Positions 6,303 to 50,077 of a stretch of DNA of 64,000 nucleotides are shown here, piece after piece. Position numbers and translations under genes: made by a program. Positions within the stretch are counted from its first letter, which is position 1; the number at the start of each line of letters is the position of its first letter. This DNA is from Candidatus Firestoneibacteriota bacterium (GTDB lineage Bacteria > Oederibacteriota > D2-FULL-39-29 > JBBTED01), in contig JBBTED010000059.1 of the NCBI GenBank assembly GCA_038042445.1, forward strand, positions 20,972-84,971, written 5' to 3'. The notes beneath the pieces are model-generated. The model did not search any database, was not told the origin of the DNA, and worked only from the letters and a program-made list of their open reading frames with translations.

Positions 6303-6593
6303 ATGAATAAAGAAGAAATAAAAAACATTCTTAGTTCTCAACTTTCTTTTCTAAAAGAAAAATACCATGTCAAAAAATTAGGCATTTTTGGTTCTGTCGT
6401 TAGAAATGAAGCAAAAGAAGATAGTGATGTAGATGTAATGGTAGAGTTTGAATCTCCAATCGGTTTTTTTGAATTCATCAGGTTAGAAAATTTCTTAAGT
6501 GAAAAAATTCAGCAAAAAGTTGATCTTGTTTCTACAAAAGCGATAAAACCAATTATAAAGAACGATATTCTTAAGGAAACAATTTATGTCTAA
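6303..6593 (+). CDS. mntA: Minimal nucleotidyltransferase (MNT) antitoxin
   Basis: GS-X10-DxD (FGSVVRNEAKEDSDVD) and KVDLV; overlaps the HEPN gene. Confidence 0.9.
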   Translation: MNKEEIKNILSSQLSFLKEKYHVKKLGIFGSVVRNEAKEDSDVDVMVEFESPIGFFEFIRLENFLSEKIQQKVDLVSTKAIKPIIKNDILKETIYV

Positions 6594-6933
6594 AAGAGAA
6601 TCACGGCTTTATCTTGAAGATATAAAAGACTCTATTGGCAAGATAGAGAGATACATTAAAGATTTATCTTTTGATGAATTTACTGAAGACGATAAAACAA
6701 TTGATGCTATTGTTAGAAATCTGAGCATAATTGGTGAGGCTGCAAGAAATATTCCTGAGGACATAAAGTTAAAGAATCCCGATATTGCTTGGATTGAAAT
6801 CATTGGTATGAGAAATAAAATCACTCACGAATATTTTGGTATTGATGAAGATATTTTATGGAAGACTATAAAAGAAGATTTGCCAATCTTAAAAAATCAG
6901 ATTTTGGAATTATTAAAAAATTTTTTGATATAA
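6586..6933 (+). CDS. hepT: HEPN (DUF86) RNase toxin
   Basis: IIGEAA and the R-X4-H-X-Y motif RNKITHEY. Confidence 0.9.
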   Translation: MSKRESRLYLEDIKDSIGKIERYIKDLSFDEFTEDDKTIDAIVRNLSIIGEAARNIPEDIKLKNPDIAWIEIIGMRNKITHEYFGIDEDILWKTIKEDLPILKNQILELLKNFLI

Positions 6934-11632: not shown

Positions 11633-13810
11633 ATGGATGTGATTGAACGAAGACGTGCTGAAAGAATAACAATGCTGGCTGGTGTAAAGCTGAAGGAAAA
11701 AGAATATGGAATAGTAACTGAAGGGACAATAGTTAATATAAGTACACTTGGGCTTGGAGTTTTATCTTCTCAAACAATTCCAAGAGGAAAACAACTGTCA
11801 CTTTTTTTTGATTTGTCAGGTAATATTAATTTTGAAAATTTATCTGCGCGTGTAATACGAGGAACGCAACTTGTTGACAATCATTATTTGGCACTTGAAT
11901 TTACAGATATAACAGATGAACATAAAGGAAAAATAGATAAATTTGTAGAATCTTTTAAATGCAATTTTTCAATAATTTTTCAGCCGTATGGCAAAAAAAT
12001 AGTTGTTCCTGCAGGGACAAAAATTAAAGAAGCAGCTGCGCTTGCCGGAATAATGATTGAGACCCCATGTGGTGGCCAGAGTAAATGTGGTAAATGTTAT
12101 GTTGAAGTTATTACAGGTCTTATGCCGGCAAATGCAGAAGAGTCTAAAATATTGCAGGATGCACAGTTGCCAAATAACTTTCGTTTGTCCTGCAAAAGTG
12201 TTATTCAGACAAATACAGTAGTTAGAATTCCAGAAGAAACACTGCTATATACACAAAAGATTTTAGCAGAAGGTGTGGGGACTAAAGTGGTTGTTCAATC
12301 TGCTGTCAAAAAAATATATATTGAAATGGAAAAACCAAGTTTAGATAAACAGATAGGCGATTGGGATAATTTAAAATATAATTTAAAAGGCATAGTGAAT
12401 TCTCCAATTTCTAATTTAGATATGTTAAAGAATTTGTCAAAAAAACTCAAAGAATCAGATTTTAAAATAACTGTTACATCTGTTAATAATGAAATAATTG
12501 ATATTGAAAAAGGTAATACTGTGAGTAATTCTTATGGTATGGCATTTGATATAGGCACAACTACAGTTGTTGGAAGCCTCATAGATTTGGGCACAGGCGA
12601 AGTTAAAGCAGTTGTTCCTGCGATGAATCCACAGGTAGTCTATGGTGATGATGTAATATCAAGAATAAAATTTTCTATAACTGAATCCGATGGTTTAAAA
12701 AAAGTACATAGTAAAATAATAGATTTAATAAATGATTTAATATCAAAAGCTGTTAAAGTATGCAAGATTGACAAAAAGTCAATTTATGAAATAACTATTG
12801 TTGGAAATAGCACAATGCAGCATTTTTTTCTTGGTGTTTCTCCGGAAAATCTTGGGTTTTTACCGTATGTTCCTGTTATTCAGGAATCCTGTGATATAAA
12901 GGCGTGCGATTTAAAATTAGATATTAATCCAAATGGCAATGTTCATATTTTACCTAATATTGCTGGTTACGTTGGTGCAGATACAGTTGGGGTAATACTA
13001 TCCGCTTCTTTACATAAAAGTGAAAAAATAAAATTAGCTATAGATATTGGAACAAATGGAGAGATAGTTCTGGGTTCTAAAGATTTGCTGGTGTCTTGCT
13101 CTACTGCTGCTGGTCCTGCATTTGAAGGAGTGCATATTTCTTGTGGTATGAGAGCTGCATCAGGTGCTATTGATAAAGTAAAAATAGAAAATGATGATAT
13201 ATTTATTAATGTGATTGAGGGTGCAGTGCCACATGGTATATGTGGGACTGGGCTTGTTGATGCTGTTGCAGTGCTTTTAAGTGCTGGAATAATAGATGAG
13301 ACAGGAAGGATTTTATCAAAGGGAGAATTAGATAAAAAAGTGTCTGCTAAGTTGGCTGCTCGTATTGTAGAAGGGAAAAGCGGGTATGATTTTATATTGT
13401 GGCAGTCTGATACTAAAAAAATATTATTAACCCAAAAAGATGTCCGGGAATTACAATTGGCAAAAGGTGCTATAAGAAGTGGAATTGAAAGTTTGAAAAA
13501 AAACCTAAAAATTAGTAATGCTGATATTGAAGAAGTTCTTTTGGCCGGTGCATTTGGAAATTATCTTAAGCCAGAAAGTGCATTGCGTATAGGATTAATT
13601 CCGGATTTTCCACTATCCAAGGTTAAATCAATAGGAAATGCTGCATTTGAAGGCGCAAAAATGGCACTTGTGTCTGTTTTGGCACGTAAAGAATCTGATG
13701 AAATAGGTAGAAAAGCAAAATATATTGAATTGTCAACTGTGCAGGATTTTAACGAAGAATTTTCTAATGCTATGATGTTTCCAAAGTGGCAAGATATTGC
13801 TACGAAATAA
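11633..13810 (+). CDS. PilZ-[2Fe-2S]-ASKHA fusion (RACo/DUF4445-type corrinoid reductive activator with an N-terminal PilZ domain)
   Basis: RRRAER and NISTLG (PilZ); CGGQSKCGKC...RLSC (2Fe-2S); DIGTTT, DIGTNGE, AAGPAFEG, GICGTG, LAGAFG (ASKHA). Confidence 0.88.
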   Translation: MDVIERRRAERITMLAGVKLKEKEYGIVTEGTIVNISTLGLGVLSSQTIPRGKQLSLFFDLSGNINFENLSARVIRGTQLVDNHYLALEFTDITDEHKGKIDKFVESFKCNFSIIFQPYGKKIVVPAGTKIKEAAALAGIMIETPCGGQSKCGKCYVEVITGLMPANAEESKILQDAQLPNNFRLSCKSVIQTNTVVRIPEETLLYTQKILAEGVGTKVVVQSAVKKIYIEMEKPSLDKQIGDWDNLKYNLKGIVNSPISNLDMLKNLSKKLKESDFKITVTSVNNEIIDIEKGNTVSNSYGMAFDIGTTTVVGSLIDLGTGEVKAVVPAMNPQVVYGDDVISRIKFSITESDGLKKVHSKIIDLINDLISKAVKVCKIDKKSIYEITIVGNSTMQHFFLGVSPENLGFLPYVPVIQESCDIKACDLKLDINPNGNVHILPNIAGYVGADTVGVILSASLHKSEKIKLAIDIGTNGEIVLGSKDLLVSCSTAAGPAFEGVHISCGMRAASGAIDKVKIENDDIFINVIEGAVPHGICGTGLVDAVAVLLSAGIIDETGRILSKGELDKKVSAKLAARIVEGKSGYDFILWQSDTKKILLTQKDVRELQLAKGAIRSGIESLKKNLKISNADIEEVLLAGAFGNYLKPESALRIGLIPDFPLSKVKSIGNAAFEGAKMALVSVLARKESDEIGRKAKYIELSTVQDFNEEFSNAMMFPKWQDIATK

Positions 13811-35360: not shown

Positions 35361-35444
35361 TATGGTCTGGTGGAAAAAATATCAACCATAAGGGAAAAAA
35401 TTATACTGTCTCCTTAAAACACACAGTATCAGGGAAAAAATTAT
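35361..35444 (+). promoter_or_regulatory. Structured leader upstream of the manC-like gene
   Basis: TATGGTCTGGTG...ACCATAA (similar to 2631-2660), then AGGGAAAAAATTAT twice (35391, 35431) flanking an ATACTGT/ACAGTAT hairpin. Confidence 0.45.
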
Positions 35445-37941
35445 GAAAGCTGTTATAATGGCAGGGGGATTTGGTACACGACTTAGACCTATTACTTGTA
35501 ATATTCCTAAACCGGTTGTTCCTTTAGCAAACAGACCTATAATGGAACATATTATCGAACTTCTAAAACGTTATGGGTTTGTGGATTTAGCTGCAATACT
35601 TTATCATCAACCTGAAATAATTACAGAATATTTTCGCGATGGTGTGGAATTTGGTGTGAAGATGAGTTATGTCAGAGCTGAGTCTGACCTTGGGACTGCG
35701 GGTAGTGTAAAAAAGGCTGTTAAATTATTAAATGAGAGATTTTTAATTATAAGTGGAGATTTGCTTACTAATTTTAATTTATCTGAAATTATAGATTATC
35801 ATATCAAAAAGAAAGCACTTGCAACTATGGTTTTAACTCGTGTTGAAAATCCACTTCAGTATGGAGTTGTTATCACAGAAAAAAATGGTAAAATATCCAG
35901 ATTTTTAGAAAAACCTTCATGGGGAGAAGTTTTTAGTGATACGATAAATACAGGAATTTATGTATTAGAGCCACAAGCACTTAACTATATTCCGGACGAT
36001 CAGGAATTTGATTTTAGCAAAAATCTTTTTCCTCTTTTTCTTGAAAAAGGTTTGCCTCTTTATGGATATGTAGCATCAGGTTACTGGAAAGATATTGGGA
36101 ATTTATCTGAATACAGGTTAGCGCATAGTGATGTTTTAAATGGCAAGATAACTCTTAATATACATGGCCGTAAAATTGAAGATAAAAATAAGAATCTTTG
36201 GATAGGAGAGGAAACAAATATTGATCCACAGGCTATTTTGGAGGGTTCGATAATAATTGGAAAAAACTGTACTATCAAAAAGAATGTCCGAATTTCAGGT
36301 TCTGTGATTGGTGATAATTGTGTTCTTGATGAAGATGCTGATATAAAAGATTGTGTATTATGGGATAACATATATGTGGGTCCTAGTGCAAAAATATTAG
36401 ATAGCGTTATTTGCAAAGGTGTAGATGTAGGTGCAGATGCGCAAGTAGAAAAAAATGTTGTAGTTAGTGAAGAGTGTGTTCTTGGCAGGGGAAGTTTAAT
36501 TAAGCAGGATGTAAAAATATGGCCTTATAAAACTATAGAAGACGGAGCTACATTGTGCACAAGTTTAATATGGGGCGATAAATGGTCAAGAGCGTTATTT
36601 GGTGAATATGGAATAGTAGGGCTTGCAAATATAGAAATAACACCTGAATTTGCAGCAAAATTGGGAGCGGCTTATGGAGCTACTTTAGATAAAGGCGCAA
36701 CAATTTTAAGCTCTCGGGATATACATAAAACAAGCAGGATAATACATAGAGCGATAATGTGTGGTTTGCTTTCTTCAGGTGTGAATATAGTTGATTTTGG
36801 AATTACACCAATACCTGTAGCTCATTATGTGTCTAGGCCACTTGGAACTTGTGGTGGAATACATATTAGAAGGTCTCCTTATAATTCACAGGTTATAGAC
36901 ATTAAGTTTTTTGATGAAAATGGAATGGATTTAAGTTCTTCAAGAGAACGGAGTATAGAAAGTTTGTTTTTTAGGGAAGATTTTAGACGTGCCCAGATTG
37001 AAGAAACAGGTGAAATATCTTTTCCATCCAGAGCTATGGAATTATATAGAGACGGGTTTTTAAATTTTGCAAATGTTAAAGAAATACAAAATGCAAAATT
37101 TAAAATTGTTGTGGATTACGCTTATGGTCCGGCTGCCACAATATTTCCTTCGCTTCTTGGAAAATTTTCCTGTGAAGTGGTTGCTTTGAATTCACATATG
37201 GATGCTTCAAAACTTACTAAAACTGCGGAGGAATTTGATCATAGCTTGAAACAGCTTTCTAATATTGTTGGAACATTAAAAGCAGATGCCGGATTTTTGA
37301 TGGATGCAGGTGGAGAGAAAATTTTTATGGTTGATGAACTTGGAAAGGTTGTTTCCGGAGATGATGCATTGGGATTGATTGTGTCACTTGTATTGTCGAG
37401 CAATCCATTTTCTACAATTGCTGTTCCAGTTACTGCTTCTAGAAATATTGAAGAAATAGCAAAAAAAAATGGGTCTATTGTTTTGCGGACACGAACTACA
37501 TATCGTTCTATGATGGATACAGCACAAAAAAAAGATGTGATTTTTGTAGGTGAAAATAAGGGTGGATATATATTTTCAAAATTCAATACTACTTTTGATG
37601 CAATGATGTCTATAGCAAAGCTTCTGGAATTTCTGGCAAAACATAAAGTAAAAATATCAACAGTTTTGAAAAAATTACCTAAGTCAGTAATTATTCGCGA
37701 GCATATTTCTTGTCCATGGGAACTTAAAGGAACAATTATGCGTAATTTAATAGAAGCAACCAAGTCGCATAAAGTGGATTTAATAGATGGTGTTAAAGTG
37801 TATCATAACAGGGATTGGGTTATAATAGTTCCAGATCAGGAAATGCCATTATTACATATTAATGCTGAAGCATCTGATGAGCAAAAAGCAAGGACATTAG
37901 TAAATAAATATATAGAACAAATCAAAAAATGGCAAAAATAA
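35443..37941 (+). CDS. Mannose-1-phosphate guanylyltransferase-like nucleotidyltransferase fused to a degenerate phosphohexomutase domain
   Basis: MAGGFGTRLRP, hexapeptide repeats, then a PGM/PMM fold lacking the SHNP and DxDxDR motifs. Confidence 0.88.
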   Translation: MKAVIMAGGFGTRLRPITCNIPKPVVPLANRPIMEHIIELLKRYGFVDLAAILYHQPEIITEYFRDGVEFGVKMSYVRAESDLGTAGSVKKAVKLLNERFLIISGDLLTNFNLSEIIDYHIKKKALATMVLTRVENPLQYGVVITEKNGKISRFLEKPSWGEVFSDTINTGIYVLEPQALNYIPDDQEFDFSKNLFPLFLEKGLPLYGYVASGYWKDIGNLSEYRLAHSDVLNGKITLNIHGRKIEDKNKNLWIGEETNIDPQAILEGSIIIGKNCTIKKNVRISGSVIGDNCVLDEDADIKDCVLWDNIYVGPSAKILDSVICKGVDVGADAQVEKNVVVSEECVLGRGSLIKQDVKIWPYKTIEDGATLCTSLIWGDKWSRALFGEYGIVGLANIEITPEFAAKLGAAYGATLDKGATILSSRDIHKTSRIIHRAIMCGLLSSGVNIVDFGITPIPVAHYVSRPLGTCGGIHIRRSPYNSQVIDIKFFDENGMDLSSSRERSIESLFFREDFRRAQIEETGEISFPSRAMELYRDGFLNFANVKEIQNAKFKIVVDYAYGPAATIFPSLLGKFSCEVVALNSHMDASKLTKTAEEFDHSLKQLSNIVGTLKADAGFLMDAGGEKIFMVDELGKVVSGDDALGLIVSLVLSSNPFSTIAVPVTASRNIEEIAKKNGSIVLRTRTTYRSMMDTAQKKDVIFVGENKGGYIFSKFNTTFDAMMSIAKLLEFLAKHKVKISTVLKKLPKSVIIREHISCPWELKGTIMRNLIEATKSHKVDLIDGVKVYHNRDWVIIVPDQEMPLLHINAEASDEQKARTLVNKYIEQIKKWQK

Positions 37942-39353
37942 CTTTTGGTACATCAGGGTGGAGAGCTATAATAGCTGAGGATTTTACTTTTGAAAATGTT
38001 TCTATTGTAGCTCAGGCGATTGCAAATTATCTTGCTGAAAGCAAAAGTAAAAGCATTGTTATAGGTTATGATACACGTTTTTTGTCTGAAAAATTTGCTC
38101 ATAGTGTTGCTGAAGTAACTTCTGCAAATAAACTACACACATTTTTAGCGCATAGAGATGTTCCTACTCCAGTAATTGCTTTTGAAATCTTAAGACGCAA
38201 ATCCGGAGGTGGAATAAACATTACTGCAAGTCATAATCCTCCGGAATATAACGGGATAAAATTTTCTTCCAATTGGGGAGGTCCTGCTACTACAGATGTA
38301 ACAAAACAGATAGAAAAAAATATTCAAGAAATTCTGAAGGGCAAAAAAAGCGTAAAAAAGATTTCAATTGAAGAAGGAGTTAAAAAAGGCAATATTGAAT
38401 TCATACAGCCATATTTTGCATATTTTAAGAGAATAAAAGATATTGTTGACTTTAAAATTTTAAAAAAATTAAAGAAAAAAATAGTTGTGGATTGTTTTTA
38501 TGGAACAGGCAGAGGATATTTAGATGAACTTTTATCACAAGCAGGTTGTAGTACAGTAATATTACATTCAAAAAGAGATGTTTTGTTTGGTGGAAAAACT
38601 CCAGAACCATCTGGCGAAAACTTGCAGGAATTAATTGCTACAGTTAAATCGCAAAATGCTGTATTAGGTCTTGCAATGGATGGAGATGCAGATAGATTTG
38701 GCATAGTAGATAGAGATGGAACATATTTAACTTCAAATGAAGTGTTGGTATTACTTTTTAAATATTTGGTTGAATCCAGAAACTGGAAAGGTTGTGTTGT
38801 CCGAACTATTGCAACGACTCATCTTATAGATGCAATGGCGTCAAAATATAATGTTCCTGTAAGGGAAACACCTGTTGGATTTAAATATATTGGTGAAATA
38901 ATGACAAAAGAAGACATAATAATAGGTGGAGAAGAGAGCGGTGGGCTTTCTGTTTACAGGCATATTCCTGAAAAAGACGGTATACTTGCTTGTTTGCTTA
39001 TTGCTGAACTTGTTGCTGCTTATGGTGGTAAAACTTTAAAGTCTATTTTGAAAGAAATACATAAAGAATTTGGTACATATTATAACTCAAGGATGAGTTT
39101 AAAATTAGGGGAAGACAAAAAAGTAAAACTACTGCATTTATTTAAAAATAATCCTCCTGAAAAATTGGGGTATTTAAAAGTTACACATTTAGATACCAGA
39201 GATGGATTTAAATTTATTTTAGAAGATGGAAATTGGATGCTTATGAGGTTTTCCGGAACAGAGCCACTTGTACGTTTATATTTTGAAGCTACTAATTTGA
39301 AATCGCTACAGGCTCTAAAAAAATCCACACGAGAAATAATATCAAAACTTTGA
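37929..39353 (+). CDS. Phosphoglucomutase/phosphomannomutase
   Basis: FGTSGWR, TASHNP, DGDADR, GEESGG, RFSGTEP. Confidence 0.94.
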   Translation: MAKITFGTSGWRAIIAEDFTFENVSIVAQAIANYLAESKSKSIVIGYDTRFLSEKFAHSVAEVTSANKLHTFLAHRDVPTPVIAFEILRRKSGGGINITASHNPPEYNGIKFSSNWGGPATTDVTKQIEKNIQEILKGKKSVKKISIEEGVKKGNIEFIQPYFAYFKRIKDIVDFKILKKLKKKIVVDCFYGTGRGYLDELLSQAGCSTVILHSKRDVLFGGKTPEPSGENLQELIATVKSQNAVLGLAMDGDADRFGIVDRDGTYLTSNEVLVLLFKYLVESRNWKGCVVRTIATTHLIDAMASKYNVPVRETPVGFKYIGEIMTKEDIIIGGEESGGLSVYRHIPEKDGILACLLIAELVAAYGGKTLKSILKEIHKEFGTYYNSRMSLKLGEDKKVKLLHLFKNNPPEKLGYLKVTHLDTRDGFKFILEDGNWMLMRFSGTEPLVRLYFEATNLKSLQALKKSTREIISKL

Positions 39354-42595: not shown

Positions 42596-42632
42596 AAAAA
42601 GTCCAATCTGTATTATGCAGATTGGACTTTTT
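42596..42632. terminator. Intrinsic terminator, bidirectional form
   Basis: AAAAAGTCCAATCTG...CAGATTGGACTTTTT. Confidence 0.8.
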
Positions 42633-42664
42633 GTTATAAATAATTCATATATAGATTTGTGTAT

Positions 42665-42693
42665 TTGACAAAACCTTAAAAGTGATGTATACT
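42665..42693 (+). promoter_or_regulatory. sigma70 promoter of the minor-pilin operon
   Basis: TTGACA-17 nt-TATACT; ATG follows after 9 nt. Confidence 0.75.
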
Positions 42694-42702
42694 ATATATA
42701 GT

Positions 42703-44514
42703 ATGCGAAATAAGTTTAAGATATTTAGAAAAATTGATGCATTTAGTTTGGTTGAGATTATGATTGCAGTTACAGTTATTGCATTATTATTGGTAGCTGT
42801 TCTTAAGATGTTTGCCAGTTTATCCAAAGGTGCTCTTATGGCAAAATTTAAGACAGTAGCAACAAATTTGGCGCAGGAAAAAATTGAGGTGTATAAGAAT
42901 TATTCGTATGATGAGTTGGTAACAGGTACAACTACTGACAATGTAACTATTGGTGATAAAGTGTATACTCGTAGTGTAGATGTATCATATATTGTGGAAT
43001 CTTCCGGAGTGATGATAGCTTCTACTACTGATCAAAATATTAAAAAACTCAATGTTGTTGTTAGGTGGACAGACGGGGGACAAGCAAAAAATTTCTCTCT
43101 AGATAATTTTTTTGCAAATCCCGGGGTGCCTGTTATGACAGGTTCTATAGAAGGAAAAATAACCAAATATGGGACGTCTACTATTGTAGATGATGCTACT
43201 GTTACTGTAGTATATCCTCCTGGTGTTTATTATTCTGCAATTAGTTCAGGTGCTACTGTTAATTATACTCTTACTAATATGGAAAATGGAACATATACTT
43301 TGTCTGTATCTAAAAGAACATATTTAACAGCTTATAGTGGTGCAATAACCATTTCTAATGGTTCAAGTTTTACAGGTGCGAATATTGCTATAACTTTAGT
43401 TTCTGTTGGAGTAGTTGCAGGAAATACATATCAAAGTGGTGGAGCTATTGAAGAAGCTGCTATAGTTTCTGTAAATGATAATGTTTCAGTTGAGACAACA
43501 AGTGCATCTGGAACAGGGTACTATATAATAAGTGATGTCAAAACAGGTGTCTGGACACTTACTGCAAGCAAAAGCAATACCTATGGCACACGTTCCGATA
43601 TCACAATTTCTGCAGGTGTTACTCTTACTGGAAGAAATATAACATTAAACCAAACAAATTCTGTAGGCAGGGTTTTAGGAAATGTAAAGGATGATACTGC
43701 AGCTAATGTGCAAAATGTAACTTTAAGTTGTAATGATGGAGTATCAGGTTCTACTTTATCAAATTCCAGTGGAAACTATACTTTGCTTAACACTGGGCTT
43801 GGAACGTGGACAGTTACAGCATCAAAGAATAATTATGTTTCAGGGACAAATGCGATTACTTTATTGAATAATGGAGAAACATTATCAGGTATAAATTTTA
43901 TTATAACCCGTGTAGGAAAAATTTCAGGAACTGTGGTAGACAGTGTAACTAGTGCAATAGCAAATATAAATGTTACGGCTACAGATCCACTTTCTGGTGG
44001 AACAGTTTTAGGTGTCGGGACAAGTAACTCAAGCGGTAATTTTACAATTAATAATGTTGCTGTGGGAACAAATTATATGGTTGAGCCGGTAGTTGGAAGT
44101 CAATATAATAGTTCTCCTTCAAGTGTTACAGGAGTTACTATAACACAAGGGAATATTACAAGTGTTGGTTCTTTTATACTTACTTCTGTAACCGGCACAA
44201 TAAGTGGTAACGTATATAATAGTAGCGGTAGATTAATTAACACAGGGGTTTTGATAACAGCTGCATCAAGTAGTGCTGCTGTGTCTCCTACAACTACTCC
44301 TACATTGAATGCATCATTTAGGTCAGGGACCAGTATTTTTTATAGTGCTTTATCTAATTATAGTGGTTTTTATAGTGTAACTGTTATGCAGGGTGTAACT
44401 TATACAGTATATGGCCAATATGTAACTACAACAAATAATATTGCTACAACAAAAACATCAACACTTACAAATATAAGTGTAGGGAGTACAAATGCAAATT
44501 TCACGTTTCCGTAA
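42703..44514 (+). CDS. Large PilV-like minor pilin with about five carboxypeptidase-regulatory-like beta-sandwich repeats
   Basis: Class III signal A|FSLVEIMIAV; A..LAQEKIE; repeat starts GSIEGKI, GVVAGNT, GRVLGNV, GKISGTV, GTISGNV; Ser/Thr-rich. Confidence 0.85.
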   Translation: MRNKFKIFRKIDAFSLVEIMIAVTVIALLLVAVLKMFASLSKGALMAKFKTVATNLAQEKIEVYKNYSYDELVTGTTTDNVTIGDKVYTRSVDVSYIVESSGVMIASTTDQNIKKLNVVVRWTDGGQAKNFSLDNFFANPGVPVMTGSIEGKITKYGTSTIVDDATVTVVYPPGVYYSAISSGATVNYTLTNMENGTYTLSVSKRTYLTAYSGAITISNGSSFTGANIAITLVSVGVVAGNTYQSGGAIEEAAIVSVNDNVSVETTSASGTGYYIISDVKTGVWTLTASKSNTYGTRSDITISAGVTLTGRNITLNQTNSVGRVLGNVKDDTAANVQNVTLSCNDGVSGSTLSNSSGNYTLLNTGLGTWTVTASKNNYVSGTNAITLLNNGETLSGINFIITRVGKISGTVVDSVTSAIANINVTATDPLSGGTVLGVGTSNSSGNFTINNVAVGTNYMVEPVVGSQYNSSPSSVTGVTITQGNITSVGSFILTSVTGTISGNVYNSSGRLINTGVLITAASSSAAVSPTTTPTLNASFRSGTSIFYSALSNYSGFYSVTVMQGVTYTVYGQYVTTTNNIATTKTSTLTNISVGSTNANFTFP

Positions 44515-44998
44515 CAATTGTGGTGTTACTATTACTGAGTTAATGGTAGCTGTAGGTGTACTTGGGATAATTGCATCTGTAAGTGCAGTGATGTTTACTA
44601 TGGGTTTTAGGTCATGGCGGCAAAGTTATGCGCAGATTGAAGTTCAGGGGGATGCCAGAAAAGTTCTTGATTTAATTGAGCGAAATTTACGTCAGGCAAC
44701 TGCAAGTACAGTTGTAATTTCACAAACAAGTGGACAGCCTGCTTATAGCAAAATTAGTTTTACTAAAGTAAATGGGGATGCAATGGAATTTTATCAAACT
44801 AATGATAAACTATATCAAAAAGTTGATACAAATGTAAATTTGTTAAGTAATAATGTGCAAAATGTATTATTTTCATATCCGGATACTTCGGATAGTTACA
44901 TAGTAGGAATAAGTGTAACTTTGCAGAAATCTACTTATGGTGGTGGTGCGAAAACAATTCAGTTGAGTGTGGAAAAAGTACAAATAAAAAACCCGTAA
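44492..44998 (+). CDS. PilW/GspJ-like minor pilin
   Basis: G|VTITELMVA prepilin site with E5; AR..LD.IERNLRQA. Confidence 0.82.
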   Translation: MQISRFRNNCGVTITELMVAVGVLGIIASVSAVMFTMGFRSWRQSYAQIEVQGDARKVLDLIERNLRQATASTVVISQTSGQPAYSKISFTKVNGDAMEFYQTNDKLYQKVDTNVNLLSNNVQNVLFSYPDTSDSYIVGISVTLQKSTYGGGAKTIQLSVEKVQIKNP

Positions 44999-45020
44999 TT
45001 AAAAAAGGAGGGAAAAACTA

Positions 45021-46445
45021 ATGAAAAAGAATAATTCTGAAAAAGGACAAGTTACTGTGATGATATTGATTGCATCAGTAGTATTAGTTGTACTTATTGG
45101 CACAATAGCTATGCTTATGAAACAAGAAAATAAATGGATGGTAAAAAGCAAAAAATCAACTGTAGCATTACATATTGCAGATGCTGCTATTGATAGAGTT
45201 ATATATAAACTTCAAATAGGGAATAACTGGGATAATATAACAAATTTGATAGGTTACAGAAATGATGTAACATATTCAGATATATCCGGTGGAACTTATG
45301 TTGTAAATGTGATAATTGGAGATGCTACTAATCAAGATAGTGACGATGATGGTATAGAAGATGATGAAGATGAAGATGATGATGATGATGGTATAGAAGA
45401 TGACATTGATGATGATGATGATGGTGATGGTATAGAAGATGATGATGACGATGGAGACGAAGAAGATGAAGATGAAGATGATGAAGATGAAGAGGGTGAA
45501 TTTGAAAATCGCAGAACAGTGATAATTACATCAACTGCTACTGGTACAGGCGAAAGAAGGAAATTGCAGGCAGTTCTTTCTAAAACCACATTAAATCGTG
45601 GTCTTTCAAGTGGTGGCCAGGCACTTTTAGGTGGAAGTTCTGATGTTTATTGGGGGCCAATTATTTCATATAGCATAGCTGATCCATCAATTAATGTTGG
45701 TACAAATAGTGTGAAAGACCATCCGGAGTGGTATGCTATGGGGCATATACACAAACAAAGTGGAGCAGAAATTACAACTGCTTCTTATTCTAACTACCAT
45801 CCCAATACTCCCTCTAGTAGTATGCCGGCTGTTGTAAATCTGGATTTTAATTATTTTAAAGCAGTAGCAAAATCTACAAATACATATTTTGCAAGTGATG
45901 TAACACATTCAACTTCTCAGATTGCTGATCATTCTCCACCAGCTGCTGCTGTTCACAATGCAAATCAGACACATTATCCTCCTATTGCAGCAGATTTTAC
46001 ATCATTAGCCACCCAATATACACAGGACATTGTGATTTTTGTAGATACTACTGATAAGCTTGCTTACAATGGGACAAATGGTTGTGGAACTGTTACGATG
46101 CAGGGTAATTATAATCACGGAACTTTAATTGTAATGGGAGATTTGGATTTTGGAGGCAATGGAACTGGATCATTAAGTGTGCCGATACCTTCTACTGCTG
46201 AGGGACAAGGTGGTCCAGACGAACCGAATCCTTATACTATAAATTTTGCGATATTCAAAGGGTTAATATATGTTGCAGATGATTTTACTGCTACAGGAAC
46301 TCCTGCGGTATTTGGCTGTATGATAGTTGGAGATTCACCGAATAATACAGGCAATGTTAAAATATATTACGACGAAAATTTGAACATAAACGGTACAGGT
46401 TTAAAAACAATTTCAGTTAGTTCCTGGCGCGAATTAGTTCCGTAG
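45021..46445 (+). CDS. PilX-like minor pilin, copy 1, with an Asp-rich insert
   Basis: KG|QVTVMIL (no E5), ALHIADAAI, C-terminal SWRE; strong SD AAGGAGG. Confidence 0.82.
   Translation: MKKNNSEKGQVTVMILIASVVLVVLIGTIAMLMKQENKWMVKSKKSTVALHIADAAIDRVIYKLQIGNNWDNITNLIGYRNDVTYSDISGGTYVVNVIIGDATNQDSDDDGIEDDEDEDDDDDGIEDDIDDDDDGDGIEDDDDDGDEEDEDEDDEDEEGEFENRRTVIITSTATGTGERRKLQAVLSKTTLNRGLSSGGQALLGGSSDVYWGPIISYSIADPSINVGTNSVKDHPEWYAMGHIHKQSGAEITTASYSNYHPNTPSSSMPAVVNLDFNYFKAVAKSTNTYFASDVTHSTSQIADHSPPAAAVHNANQTHYPPIAADFTSLATQYTQDIVIFVDTTDKLAYNGTNGCGTVTMQGNYNHGTLIVMGDLDFGGNGTGSLSVPIPSTAEGQGGPDEPNPYTINFAIFKGLIYVADDFTATGTPAVFGCMIVGDSPNNTGNVKIYYDENLNINGTGLKTISVSSWRELVP
45336..45500 (+). repeat. Coding GAT/GAA tract with a 39-bp period
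   Basis: GATGGTATAGAAGATGA at 45348, 45387 and 45426; encodes DxDxDGIEDD three times. Confidence 0.9.
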
Positions 46446-46603
46446 TGGAAAAGTACAAATAAGGAATAGTTCTGTCATTGCGTCATTTCCAATCAAGTTG
46501 GGACAAGAAAGAAAAATATAGTTCTTCTGGGATTTTAGTGAGTTCTCTTGTAATAAGTTAGTCATTCTTAAAATGGCTGTTCCACAATATAAATGCCTTT
46601 AAA

Positions 46604-47905
46604 ATGAAAACTACTAAAAAAGGACAAGTTACTGTGATGATATTGATTGCATCAGTAGTATTACTTGTACTTATTGGCACAATAGTTATGCTTATGAAAC
46701 AAGAAAATAAATGGATGATAAAAACCAAACATTCTACTACAGCATTACATATTGCAGATGCTGCTATTGATAGAGTTATATATAAACTTCAAATAGGAAA
46801 TAATTGGAATAATGTAACAGGTTTAACAGGTTATAGAAATGATGTAACACATTCAGATATAGCTGGTGGTACGTATGTTGTAAATGTGGTAATTGGAGAT
46901 ACTTCTAATGACCCGGGTCAGGAAGAACAAGATGATGAAGAAGAAGAAGTGGCAGATGAATTTACAAATAATAGAACAGTAATAGTTACAGCAACGAGTA
47001 CCGGCACAAGAGAAAAAAGAAAATTGCAAGTAGTTCTTTATAAAACTACATTAAATCGTGGTCTTTCAAGTGGTGGCCAGTCATTTTTGGGCGGTAGTTC
47101 TGATGTTTACTGGGCACCAATTCTTTCATATAGTACAGCTGACCCCTCAATTGATGTAGGCACAAATAGTGTGAAGGACCATCCAGAATGGTATGCTGTG
47201 GGACATATACATAAACAAAGTGGAGCAGAAATTACAACTGCTTCTTATTCTAACTACCATCCCAATACTCCCTCTAGTAGTATGCCGGCTGTTGTAAGTC
47301 TGGATTTTGATTATTTTAAAGCAGTAGCAAAATCTACAAATACATATTTTTCAAGTGGTGTAAACCATTCTACTTCTCAAATTGCTGATCATGCTCCACC
47401 AGCTGTAGCTGCGCATAATGCAGATGGAACACATTATCCACCTATAAAAGCAGATTTTGAAGCATTAGCCACTCAGTATACACAGGACATTGTGATTTTT
47501 GTGGATACTACTGATACGCTTGCTTACAATGGAACAAATGGCTGTGGAATTGTGCAAATGCAAGGGGGATATAATCATGGGACTTTAATTGTAATGGGAG
47601 ATTTAAACTTTGGAGGTAATGGTGGTGGAACATTAACTGTGCCTATACCTTCTACTGCTGCTGCACAACACGGTCCTACGAGTCCGGATCCGTATACTAT
47701 AAATTTTGCGATATTTAAAGGGTTAATATATGTTGCAGATGATTTTACTGCTACAGGAACTCCTGCTGTATTTGGATGTGTAATAGTTGGAGATTCACCC
47801 AACAATACAGGCAGTGTTAAAATATATTACGATGAAAATCTAAATCTAACAGGCACAGGTTTAAAAACAATTTCAATTAAATCCTGGCGCGAATTAGTTC
47901 CATAA
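46604..47905 (+). CDS. PilX-like minor pilin, copy 2 (tandem paralog)
   Basis: Collinear with 45021-46445; for example 47213-47297 is identical to 45753-45837. The acidic insert is shorter. Confidence 0.82.
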   Translation: MKTTKKGQVTVMILIASVVLLVLIGTIVMLMKQENKWMIKTKHSTTALHIADAAIDRVIYKLQIGNNWNNVTGLTGYRNDVTHSDIAGGTYVVNVVIGDTSNDPGQEEQDDEEEEVADEFTNNRTVIVTATSTGTREKRKLQVVLYKTTLNRGLSSGGQSFLGGSSDVYWAPILSYSTADPSIDVGTNSVKDHPEWYAVGHIHKQSGAEITTASYSNYHPNTPSSSMPAVVSLDFDYFKAVAKSTNTYFSSGVNHSTSQIADHAPPAVAAHNADGTHYPPIKADFEALATQYTQDIVIFVDTTDTLAYNGTNGCGIVQMQGGYNHGTLIVMGDLNFGGNGGGTLTVPIPSTAAAQHGPTSPDPYTINFAIFKGLIYVADDFTATGTPAVFGCVIVGDSPNNTGSVKIYYDENLNLTGTGLKTISIKSWRELVP

Positions 47906-47914
47906 TAAGATTGC

Positions 47915-48004
47915 GTCATTGCGAGGAACGAAGTGACAAAGCAATCTGATTTTTGTATTGCGACTAAAGAGATTGCTTCACTTCCTTTGGTCATTCGCAA
48001 TGAC
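47915..48004. repeat. Palindromic element, GTCATTGCGA...TCGCAATGAC family
   Basis: Same family as 17555-17626, in the opposite orientation. Confidence 0.85.
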
Positions 48005-48016
48005 AAAAATGTCAAA

Positions 48017-50077
48017 ATGTTTCCAGCTCTATCAGTTTTCCTAATCAGCTTTGCCGTATACTTGCATACTATTTGTCCGAGTATTTACGTTGGGGATAGT
48101 GGCGAGCTTATAACTGCAAGTTATAATCTTGGAATTTCGCATCCACCTGGTTATCCAATATGGTGTGTCCTATCCAAAATATGGACAATAATAATTCCGT
48201 ATGGTGATATAGCATTTCGTGTAAATATTTCCTCTGCATTTTTTGCGGCATTATCAGTACTATTTCTTTATTTGATTATAATAAAATTATTCATTAAGGG
48301 ATATACAGCATTGCTTGCAGGTGGGACAGGTGCTATGCTTTTTGCTTTTTCAAGAACGTTCTGGTCGCAGTCAGTTGTTGCTGAGGTTTATACACTTAAT
48401 ATACTTTTTTTTGCTATAGTTTTATATCTTATAATTCTTTGGTCACAGGAAATATTTTTGAAACGAAAGAATTTATTGTTTTATCTGTTTTGCCTTTTTT
48501 ATGGATTGGGCTTAGCTCATCACCACACAATGTTATTATTTTTGCCTGCTTTTTTTGCATATATTCTGACTAATGAAATGGGCATATACACTGTTAAAAA
48601 TATGCCCTTACAAACTTATATTTGCGGTATTGGATTTTTTTTAATAGGGCTTTTGTTTTTTTTATATATTCCTATAAGAGGATTTGCAAATCCTGTGCTT
48701 GATTGGGGAAATCCTACAAGTTTTATGGATTTTATTGACCATATCTTACGGAAACGTTATGGAATTCTTATGAAACATTCTAAATCATTTACACTGCTTT
48801 TAAATCAGATAATTGCGTATTCGCGGTGTTTGGCAGATGAATTTGCACCGCATATTATTGCATTAGTATCACTTGGCTTAATACAAATAAAACGTTTTAA
48901 TTCTAAATTTTTAAGTTTTACAATTTTGTTACTCATACTTTCAAGTTTGAGTTTTATGTTCCTTATAAGTTATGAAATCAAGACTATTGAATTGGAGCAA
49001 ATCGGAGTATTTTTTATTCCATCTTATTTTATATTCTCTATATTGTTTGGAAGTGGTGCGTATTATTTGCTTGAGAAATTTAAAGGGGTTTTTAGATATG
49101 GAATCGCTATTTTGCTTTTAATAATACCATTTGTTCCGTTTGCATATAATTATTATTACAATAATAAAGCAAGCTATACTATTGCTTATAATTATGGAAT
49201 AAATATTTTAAAAACATTAGAAGAAAATGCATGTTTTTTGGGAACAGGCGATAATCAGATATTTACTTTAGCATATTTTAAAATGGTAGAAGGGATAAGA
49301 CGAGATGTAACAGTATATGATGATTTTGGTTTGGTGTTTGCAAATATTTACGGCAAAAATTTTCTAAAAATGCCGGGTGATGTGGCACTCACAAGAAGAA
49401 GGCGAGTTCATGAGTCAATATTACATAGCAAAAGACCTGTATATTTTTCAATAATAAGTGAGGCAAATAAAATAGAAGGTGTTAATTCAGAAACTTTAGG
49501 TATACTTTATAAAGTAAAAAGAAAATCTTATGCAAAAAAAATGAATGATGACTTATGGAATACCTACAGATTAAATGGTGTCCATGATGATGAGATTTAT
49601 AAAGATTTTATGACTCGTTTTGTAATAGTGCAGTATCATTATTTTTTGGCTGAACGTTATTTTGCTTCAAATGATATTGGTTCTGCTACAAAAGAGGCAC
49701 TTATAGCAGAAGACATAGGTTATGATATTGATTGGGTTCAGAATAGTTTGTCTGCCACATATATTGAGGCAGCTAAAATCAATGATGCAATGCGTACTGC
49801 ATTAAAAGCAGTTAAAATAAATCCTGATTATGCTGAGGCACACAGTAATTTAGGAATAGCATTATACTATAGAGGATTCATTGATAATGCTATATACGAA
49901 TATAAAAGAGCTATTACACTAAATCCTGTATTTGCCATTGCATATAATAATCTCGGATGTGCCTATGCTGCAAAAGGCGATATAAAAGCAGCTAATATTT
50001 CTTGGAAGAATGCTTTAAAAATAGCACCCGACTATAAAGATCCAATTAAAAATATGAAAGTAAGTCAGCGGTTCTAA
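48017..50077 (+). CDS. DUF2723 (TMEM260-like, GT-C fold) glycosyltransferase with C-terminal TPRs
   Basis: GDSGELI, LGISHPPGYP, FWSQSVVAEVY, DWGNP, many TM helices, TPR tail. The track's 47933 start lies inside the palindromic element. Confidence 0.88.
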   Translation: MFPALSVFLISFAVYLHTICPSIYVGDSGELITASYNLGISHPPGYPIWCVLSKIWTIIIPYGDIAFRVNISSAFFAALSVLFLYLIIIKLFIKGYTALLAGGTGAMLFAFSRTFWSQSVVAEVYTLNILFFAIVLYLIILWSQEIFLKRKNLLFYLFCLFYGLGLAHHHTMLLFLPAFFAYILTNEMGIYTVKNMPLQTYICGIGFFLIGLLFFLYIPIRGFANPVLDWGNPTSFMDFIDHILRKRYGILMKHSKSFTLLLNQIIAYSRCLADEFAPHIIALVSLGLIQIKRFNSKFLSFTILLLILSSLSFMFLISYEIKTIELEQIGVFFIPSYFIFSILFGSGAYYLLEKFKGVFRYGIAILLLIIPFVPFAYNYYYNNKASYTIAYNYGINILKTLEENACFLGTGDNQIFTLAYFKMVEGIRRDVTVYDDFGLVFANIYGKNFLKMPGDVALTRRRRVHESILHSKRPVYFSIISEANKIEGVNSETLGILYKVKRKSYAKKMNDDLWNTYRLNGVHDDEIYKDFMTRFVIVQYHYFLAERYFASNDIGSATKEALIAEDIGYDIDWVQNSLSATYIEAAKINDAMRTALKAVKINPDYAEAHSNLGIALYYRGFIDNAIYEYKRAITLNPVFAIAYNNLGCAYAAKGDIKAANISWKNALKIAPDYKDPIKNMKVSQRF

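Follow-up and report, generated by a model that had tools for sequence, protein, structure and literature searches.

Which protein would a membrane glycosyltransferase modify when its gene closes a row of minor-pilin genes? The question is raised by a locus of an uncultured groundwater bacterium of the Candidatus Firestoneibacteriota (assembly GCA_038042445.1), in which four pilin-like genes and a gene for a relative of human TMEM260 follow one another within a stretch of 64,000 nucleotides (contig JBBTED010000059.1, positions 20,972 to 84,971 of the forward strand), here called the window and numbered from its first letter. We lean towards a model in which these genes form a five-gene minor-pilin, or pilus-tip, operon that ends in its own periplasm-facing protein O-glycosyltransferase. 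The evidence that carries this model is the position of the enzyme gene: directly after the PilX-like gene, a place that we call the slot, a membrane transferase is found in most related genomes that have the same cassette of pilin genes, and this gives strong comparative support to a dedicated pilin-modifying enzyme at the slot. The original prediction, made from the letters of the window, had proposed that an enzyme of the DUF2723 family (PF11028), to which TMEM260 belongs, might glycosylate the large pilin of the operon. The idea of a pilin-glycosylating enzyme is supported at the level of function, since 27 of 32 other genomes have a gene for a membrane transferase at the slot, whereas the linkage of the DUF2723 family itself to pilin genes is not conserved.

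A row of pilin-like genes and the enzyme gene behind it

The window is AT-rich (26-36% G+C), and between 42.6 and 50.1 kb it carries five open reading frames (ORFs), all on the plus strand: a pilV-like gene, a pilW-like gene, two PilX-like genes (X1 and X2) and the enzyme gene. ORF calls and Pfam thus confirm the predicted one-strand set of a large pilin, a small pilin, two PilX-like genes and a DUF2723 enzyme with tetratricopeptide repeats (TPR). The pilV-like gene runs from 42682 (GTG) or 42703 (ATG) to 44514 and encodes a putative large minor pilin of 610 residues that scores just below the cut-off for N_methyl (19.3 bits against 21.2) and matches CarboxypepD_reg (PF13620, E 6.9e-23). Pfam places the latter domain in four stretches, and five Ser/Thr-rich beta-sandwich repeats are readable in the sequence, in agreement with the PilV-like pilin of about 600 residues and about five such repeats that had been anticipated. 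The prepilin segment has an atypical Ala at position -1, where its homologues have Gly, and the Ser plus Thr content of 27% places the protein at the 99.8th percentile of the 2,083 ORFs of at least 150 residues in the genome. The pilW-like gene (44492-44998), which overlaps the pilV-like gene by 23 nt, encodes a small minor pilin of 168 residues with matches to N_methyl (21.4 bits, cut-off 21.2) and TIGR02532 (E 0.0011).

X1 (45021-46445, 474 residues) and X2 (46604-47905, 433 residues) are tandem paralogues with 82% identity, and each encodes a putative pseudopilin that begins with GQ and a hydrophobic segment but lacks Glu5. Neither matches a Pfam or NCBIfam family; the label PilX-like is suggested by this N-terminal segment and by their ESM-Atlas neighbours (score 0.97), which include one cluster with PilX_N on 53% of its members and one named as a PilX family. 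X1 also contains an acidic insert of about 50 residues, rich in Asp and Glu, that arises from a 39-nt tandem repeat of 4.1 copies (45334-45493), and X2 has a shorter acidic insert at the matching position. Metagenome contigs break at the tandem repeat of X1, and its length may therefore vary between populations.

The fifth gene (47933-50077, with a likelier start at 48017) was identified with Pfam and phmmer as encoding a TMEM260-like GT-C membrane glycosyltransferase with C-terminal TPR. Counted from the GTG at 47933, the protein has 714 residues; it matches PF11028 at 134.7 bits (cut-off 24.2, E 4e-39) over residues 55-214, and Pfam and NCBIfam families place TPR repeats at about 566-709, which bears out the DUF2723 and TPR assignments. 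A Wzy_C match was not found with Pfam. In a phmmer comparison of residues 1-470 with PDB sequences, the one match was human TMEM260 (9rql_A, E 1.6e-44); residues 33-464 of the enzyme align to residues 30-465 of TMEM260 (432 residues), covering the GT-C core and the Rossmann-like region, and a profile of the 15 DUF2723 paralogues of this genome matches the human protein at E 2.1e-87. The residues reported, from mutagenesis or structure, to be needed in TMEM260 are D52 and H67 on the donor side, R264 and Y267, the mannose-contacting R355, and the catalytic base D441 (bioRxiv 10.64898/2026.03.17.711096). Five of these six are kept: D52, H67, R264, Y267 and D441 correspond in the phmmer alignment to D55, H70, R273, Y276 and D440 of the enzyme, and across the 15 paralogues each of the five is either invariant or conserved to at least 90%. 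Judged by its sequence, the enzyme is a genuine TMEM260 relative, and by homology its TPR domain is predicted to lie on the non-cytoplasmic, periplasmic side.

The surroundings of the five genes are compatible with a single transcription unit. An intrinsic-terminator hairpin with a U tract (42596-42636, plus strand), missed by the consensus terminator scan, ends the SnoaL-like gene upstream and forms the 5' boundary of the operon. Its fold has an energy of -22.5 kcal/mol (z -8.1), a stability that none of 200 shuffles reached. Behind the enzyme gene lies a convergent pfkB gene. At the head of the row, where the original prediction had seen a promoter, a promoter-like site, TTGACA-17-TATACT (42665-42693, plus strand), has 11 of 12 matches and is the top site of a 10-kb scan, but the 45 sites of that scan are not above the number in shuffled sequence (mean 52.3). 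The original prediction had also seen no clear terminator between the genes. Consistently, no terminator-like site was listed by the consensus scan on the plus strand between 42700 and 50077, and the hairpin in the spacer that separates X2 from the enzyme gene lacks a plus-strand U tract. Support for one unit thus comes from the tight same-strand packing and the lack of an internal terminator-like site. Transcription would begin at about 42700, pass through pilV, pilW, X1 and X2 and cross the spacer hairpin into the enzyme gene, and pfkB would close the unit.

The spacer hairpin is a palindromic repeat element of 90 nt (47915-48004, plus strand; -35.5 kcal/mol, z -4.65, 0 of 200 shuffles as stable) for which Rfam holds no family, and transcriptional read-through across it is plausible from its sequence. 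Metagenome contigs of four runs from four studies pile up on its 33-nt arm, with a summed depth of 207 against about 10 in the run labelled X1 (a sequencing run, not the gene), and many loose contig ends lie at 47914/15 and 47946/47, the borders of the arm; the element is therefore a dispersed repeat. The genome has four copies at up to six mismatches, the others at C63:38886, C77:10217 and C92:12311 (G000, this genome; G, C and L are our handles for genomes, contigs and loci). Two of these three adjoin pilus or secretion genes, and the metagenome depth, far above that of the genome itself, indicates that the repeat occurs in many other contexts or organisms. Because the first 28 codons from the GTG at 47933 are encoded by the repeat and the paralogues begin near Met29, the ATG at 48017, which had been assumed before, is the likelier start of the enzyme gene. 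Its distance from X2 is 111 nt from this ATG and 27 nt from the GTG.

The slot after the PilX-like gene in related genomes

A 20-row profile finds the PilX-like gene in 34 of 99 genomes of the phylum (E <= 1e-8), and a single-protein search finds it in 20 of 61. We read the surroundings of the cassette in all 33 other genomes that have it, of which 32 are assessable; G026 was left out, as its contig ends. The order of large pilin, small pilin and PilX-like gene is kept in nearly all 33, with a large pilin containing PF13620 at the head of 14 of the 15 cassettes tested and pilW-like homologues second in the related loci examined. Directly downstream and on the same strand, 27 of the 32 genomes (28 of 33 with the window) have a gene for a polytopic membrane transferase, and TPR repeats are present in 23 of these 27. 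This slot protein is of the Wzy_C type (about 590 residues) in 23 genomes. Pfam confirms Wzy_C in 21 of them (E 1e-10 to 1e-23), and TPR is also present in 20 of these 21, the protein of L052 having Wzy_C only; the slot genes of L105 and L106 are contig-end fragments assigned to the Wzy_C type by similarity alone, and that of L102 is split into two ORFs. In four genomes the slot protein is PMT_2-like (about 800 residues, polytopic, one group). Three of the four have weak Pfam PMT_2 matches, and the fourth, from L036, has no Pfam match and joins the group by similarity (E 1e-110 to 1e-120); TPR is found in L038 and L040, and none in L036 and L039 at E <= 1e-3. The remaining five genomes (G003, G005, G041, G075 and G076) have something else in the slot. 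Among metagenomes, a 7-row X alignment gave 12 metagenome and 6 genome loci, with usable downstream DNA only in L070, L072, L075 and L077; there are two more PMT_2-like slots among the metagenome loci, L072 has none, and L075 duplicates L040. A single-protein search of metagenome contigs with X2 returned no close relatives.

How often such genes occur overall can be gauged in this genome, in which the three families (15 DUF2723 genes, about 7 of the Wzy_C and about 13 of the PMT_2-like type) account for about 1.2% of some 2,825 ORFs; in five genomes whose slot gene is of the Wzy_C type, the number of Wzy_C matches per genome is 9-15. In a tree of 11 Wzy_C slot proteins and 19 non-slot Wzy_C paralogues from two of the same genomes, 10 of the 11 slot proteins form one clade (SH-aLRT 97) that includes no non-slot paralogue. 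Because this clade excludes the other paralogues, we conclude that a single dedicated line of Wzy_C enzymes has remained linked to the cassette in many families. The eleventh protein, from GTDB family f6, falls outside the clade on a long branch, and the Wzy_C slot proteins may yet share a single origin; f6 contains both Wzy_C and PMT_2-like slot occupants. Since the relatives are not independent, slot occupation is better counted as events, of which there are at least three. Where the Wzy_C slot lineage is absent, a different enzyme family takes its place. When profiles of the DUF2723 paralogues and of the PMT_2-like slot group are compared, only the C-terminal 195 or so columns align (93.7% probability), and the membrane parts of the two show no detectable relation at this profile depth. 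We tentatively propose, with more reserve than for a dedicated enzyme as such, that the pilus-tip cassettes of this phylum reserve a position for a periplasmic glycosylation enzyme with a TPR 'reader', and that the Wzy_C, PMT_2-like and TMEM260-like families replaced one another there.

Some relatives have further genes around the cassette. In L101 (2654-4342), genes for a UbiA-like prenyltransferase and an Lgt-like membrane protein immediately precede the large pilin gene on its strand, and the same layout is seen in L044, L051, L100, L107 and L110, all from relatives with a Wzy_C slot enzyme. An unassigned protein of about 490-530 residues follows the slot enzyme in these relatives, and the conserved unit with a Wzy_C slot may be seven genes long. 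In the D-arabinofuranose (D-Araf) pathway of mycobacteria and Pseudomonas, the lipid-linked pentose donor is the product of a UbiA-type enzyme. In L037 (4351-9834) and L111 (88-7167), a giant fn3-rich protein with a FlgD_ig-type C-terminus (1,827 and 2,359 residues, respectively) comes after the cassette or the slot enzyme.

Dedicated enzyme or fortuitous neighbour

A number of observations weigh against an enzyme that belongs to this operon. The original prediction had looked to DUF2723 genes staying linked to minor-pilin operons in related genomes, and this is not what we find: no DUF2723 gene follows the cassette in any of the 32 other assessable genomes of the phylum, and none of the 82 DUF2723 genes in 12 other genomes of the class (matches at E <= 1e-30, with pilins taken as N_methyl matches) stands directly behind a pilin cassette. 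For DUF2723 taken literally, this is the lack of conserved linkage, in this lineage, that the prediction itself had named as a refutation. Only one of the 82 lies less than 5 kb from a pilin gene (G001:C41) and five lie within 14 kb, where about five would roughly be expected by chance; four of these five are at 10-13.4 kb. The two cassette genomes of the same class, G003 and G005, lack a transferase after the cassette, even though their pilV keeps the repeats. Within this genome, the 14 other paralogues are mostly found in housekeeping contexts (UppS/CdsA, ClpXP, RecA, PFK and GyrB), one, on C163, comes after genes for a type-9-secretion cargo protein and a PorV-like protein, and the gene in the window is the only one of the 15 to share a contig with pilin-like genes. 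The enzyme has no 1:1 orthologue. Its best match is a paralogue of its own genome (41% identity, compared with at most 37% in relatives), and its sister in a 30-row tree (the 15 paralogues, one best match from each of 11 relatives and 4 short-type genes) is the paralogue on C95 (UFBoot 90, SH-aLRT 93; node not starred for support); a single-protein search of genome contigs with the enzyme gave no close relatives. The strong spacer hairpin separates X2 from the enzyme gene, whose start codon is uncertain, and the junction is bridged by one contig record (run X1, possibly the source sample), the contigs of other runs stopping at the repeat. As for the chemistry, R355 of TMEM260 is replaced by V359, in a region of lower alignment confidence, and the proposed human sequon P-x5-P-x3-G-P-x2-G/A-G-G-x2-T/S occurs in none of the four pilins or the two PilA-like proteins.

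Much of this would be explained if the enzyme were one of 15 general envelope glycosyltransferases for other proteins or glycans, moved behind the cassette by a recent rearrangement, and its adjacency fortuitous. Given 15 paralogues spread over 2.8 Mb, all but this one in contexts unrelated to pilins, and some six pilin clusters, the a-priori chance that at least one paralogue would adjoin a cluster is by a rough estimate a few percent; the slot is empty of a transferase in the nearest relatives, G003 and G005, DUF2723 genes are not enriched near pilins within the class, and the junction carries a repeat element that may be the trace of a rearrangement. We nevertheless regard a chance neighbour as unlikely, though well worth reckoning with, as membrane transferases from two other families fill the slot in 27 of 32 other genomes, the orthologous Wzy_C lineage is linked to the cassette across many GTDB families, and one given slot would be so occupied by chance in only about 1.2% of cases.

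A link to the pilus would also be preserved if the enzyme acted outside the operon, on the major pilins (C116 and C136) or on several periplasmic proteins, and were merely co-regulated with the tip genes. The known enzymes TfpO and TfpW do modify the major pilin, and Ser/Thr make up 19-20% of the two PilA-like proteins encoded on these contigs, whose C-terminal halves are Ser/Thr-rich. In this genome, however, neither major pilin gene has a transferase beside it, throughout the phylum it is the minor-pilin cassette that shows the conserved link, and in every case the slot comes after the PilX-like gene, which together make an outside target improbable in our judgement. We give very little credence to a role of the slot protein in pilus assembly, in which its TPR would act as a scaffold or as a pilotin of the PilF/PilW/Tgl kind and its transferase activity would be irrelevant or lost. 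The best NCBIfam matches of the C-terminal part are type_IV_pilW (44 bits) and Tgl (40 bits), and a small TPR protein follows a second minor-pilin cassette on C147; but these matches are far below their cut-offs and reflect generic TPR similarity, the five TMEM260 functional residues that are kept hardly vary across paralogues, and the slot occupants of the relatives also keep their enzyme domains.

We therefore return to the model of an operon with its own O-glycosyltransferase. That the target is one of the pilins of the operon has, in our view, a somewhat better than even chance. The pilV repeats, five Ser/Thr-rich beta-sandwiches, are the most likely acceptor, but singling them out is a tentative step that we would take with less than even confidence. 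By homology to human TMEM260 and analogy to TfpW of Pseudomonas, the prepilins would insert into the inner membrane, where the transmembrane GT-C core of the enzyme would hold a polyprenyl-phosphate sugar via D55, H70, R273 and Y276. The periplasmic TPR 'fingers' and a Rossmann-like 'palm' would grip an extended Ser/Thr-rich stretch of pilin, and D440 would activate the acceptor hydroxyl. Such a role of the TPR accords with TMEM260, whose TPR domain alone is reported to bind the acceptor peptide in extended form (bioRxiv 10.64898/2026.03.17.711096). Mannose is a possible donor sugar. The mannose-contacting arginine of the human enzyme is missing here, the R355 column having Val, Glu, Pro or Ile in 14 of the 15 paralogues and Arg in one, and because this residue is not kept the donor may differ from mannose.

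Genes for sugar-nucleotide supply lie upstream of the operon. The original prediction had placed GDP-mannose pathway genes at 35443-39353; a sugar-1-phosphate nucleotidyltransferase fused to a phosphohexomutase (35443-37941) and a second mutase are indeed present there, but the best NCBIfam names, mannose-1-phosphate guanylyltransferase (283 bits) and archaeal GlmM (298 bits), both fall short of their cut-offs (440 and 439, respectively), so that naming the GDP-mannose pathway is plausible while no particular sugar can be assigned. Four unrelated genes and the terminator lie between these genes and the operon. The fusion has orthologues in all 12 relatives of the class, and a short DUF2723 gene with TPR is found 2.4-2.5 kb from it in G004 (Pfam-checked) and in G009 and G010 (by coordinates only). 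In G001 a DUF2723 gene with TPR lies 6 kb from the fusion, with a two-component system and two pilin genes in between, and in G003 and G005 a pilin gene is near the fusion. These arrangements give some comparative support, at the level of gene neighbourhood, to the remark on nearby sugar genes. In full, the G001 locus (L115, G001:C41, 5575-16073) has a short DUF2723 gene with TPR divergent from a histidine kinase, an OmpR-type regulator, two T2SSG-like pilins, a 561-residue protein and the fusion, and parts of this neighbourhood recur in G003, G004 and G005. A gene for a GMPPB-like sugar-1-phosphate nucleotidyltransferase (346-347 residues) is translationally coupled to a DUF2723 gene, the two overlapping or abutting, in G005 and G004 (Pfam-checked; L119 2675-5580 and L120 1899-5045) and, by coordinates only, in G009, G010 and G012; in this genome its orthologue (E 8e-109) instead overlaps a Wzy_C gene by 4 nt (C136:27633-30151). 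This coupling links the DUF2723 family to nucleotide-sugar supply and makes DUF2723 and Wzy_C trade places at a second slot, a swap which hints that the two are interchangeable modules.

Other pilus genes are present in the window and elsewhere in the genome. The window also encodes PilM (PilM_2), PilN and a PilT-like (T2SSE) ATPase, and contigs C38, C63, C116 and C136 carry a PilD-type peptidase, secretins, T2SSF/T2SSE, PilO and the major pilins. A 789-residue gene before the major pilin on C136 was considered as a transferase and rejected, as it encodes a coiled-coil protein. The second minor-pilin cassette (L065, G000:C147, 2091-6505) consists of a 470-residue pilin, a 211-residue pilin and a 545-residue protein, followed by a 205-residue protein with an N-terminal TPR and a hydrophobic C-terminus in place of a transferase; G003 has both minor-pilin cassettes in tandem (L041). 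Directly after the PilT-like ATPase gene of the window, a gene at 11633-13810 encodes a PilZ domain fused to a 2Fe-2S ferredoxin and a RACo-like protein (a corrinoid activator of the ASKHA type), which joins, unusually, a c-di-GMP reader to a redox activator. At 6586-6933 lies a gene for a HepT-like ribonuclease toxin.

Relation to known systems and significance

The closest known analogue of the proposed system is TfpW of the group IV Pseudomonas aeruginosa strains Pa5196 and PA7. TfpW is described as a 646-residue GT-C enzyme that has 11 predicted transmembrane segments and ends in a periplasmic TPR domain; its gene lies directly behind pilA, and the enzyme is both necessary and sufficient for arabinosylation of the pilin at several Ser/Thr sites (bioRxiv 10.1101/2020.04.19.049825), and an acidic motif in its first periplasmic loop is reported to be essential (bioRxiv 10.1101/2020.04.19.049825; PMC11841053). 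Both systems have the gene for a GT-C enzyme with TPR directly downstream of a pilin gene on the same strand, the distance here being 27 or 111 nt depending on the start. They differ in that TfpW follows the major pilin pilA and adds D-arabinofuranose oligomers, whereas the enzyme of the window follows a minor-pilin cassette and its probable acceptor is a set of adhesin-like repeats. The two may also differ in enzyme family.

With human TMEM260 (9rql, 9rqm, 9rqn), the enzyme shares the GT-C core, the Rossmann-like region and the C-terminal TPR. TMEM260 is reported to act on Ser/Thr of beta-sandwich (IPT) domains that are still extended, and the candidate acceptor here is the prealbumin-like CarboxypepD_reg repeat; in contrast to the human system, the lipid carrier would be a bacterial polyprenol, and there are 15 paralogues in place of a single gene. 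A further comparison is with TfpO/PilO, PglL and PglS, which are pilin-glycosylating membrane enzymes of the Wzy_C family, a domain shared by the slot proteins of the relatives. Genes for such oligosaccharyltransferases (OTases) tend to sit beside their target pilins (PMC3643930), and this is reported as frequent for the Wzy_C-family pilin OTases in particular (PMC3643930, PMC9829042). Unlike TfpO and PglL, the enzyme here is not of the Wzy_C family, and the Wzy_C proteins of the relatives carry a C-terminal TPR and follow minor pilins; neither of these two features is described in the titles and abstract openings returned by our literature search. Like FimU-PilV-PilW-PilX and GspH-K, the cassette has several prepilin-like genes in a row of which the last lacks Glu5. 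It differs from these sets in having only three kinds of subunit, with the PilX-like gene duplicated and no PilY1-like gene, and in a very large first subunit with five beta-sandwich repeats.

In medicine, TMEM260 is known as the gene of SHDRA syndrome, and of bacteria that report mentions only 'distant homologs in bacteria' (PMC10214176). In our literature searches no paper attributed a substrate to a bacterial enzyme of the DUF2723/TMEM260 family, as judged in part by titles and abstract openings, and the pilin operon described here is a concrete candidate substrate for a bacterial enzyme of this type. If the tentative proposal of a reserved position with exchanged enzyme families is true, the beta-sandwich repeats of a pilus-tip adhesin would be the first substrate class for the bacterial TMEM260 family and would echo the preference of the human enzyme for beta-sandwich domains of receptors, suggesting an ancient pairing of enzyme and fold. 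The exchange of three families at the slot is independent comparative evidence for glycosylation enzymes dedicated to minor, tip pilins and not only to major ones, and the position of the slot offers a way to find pilin glycosylation enzymes in uncultured phyla. Such glycosylation would likely serve to shield the exposed tip adhesin from phages and proteases, or to tune adhesion. In P. aeruginosa, glycosylation by TfpO and TfpW is reported to guard against pilus-specific phages (PMC11841053), in line with the finding that pilus glycosylation blocks such phages (bioRxiv 10.1101/150227). On the strength of these reports, a sugar coat on the pilus tip could bear on phage-host ecology in groundwater communities.

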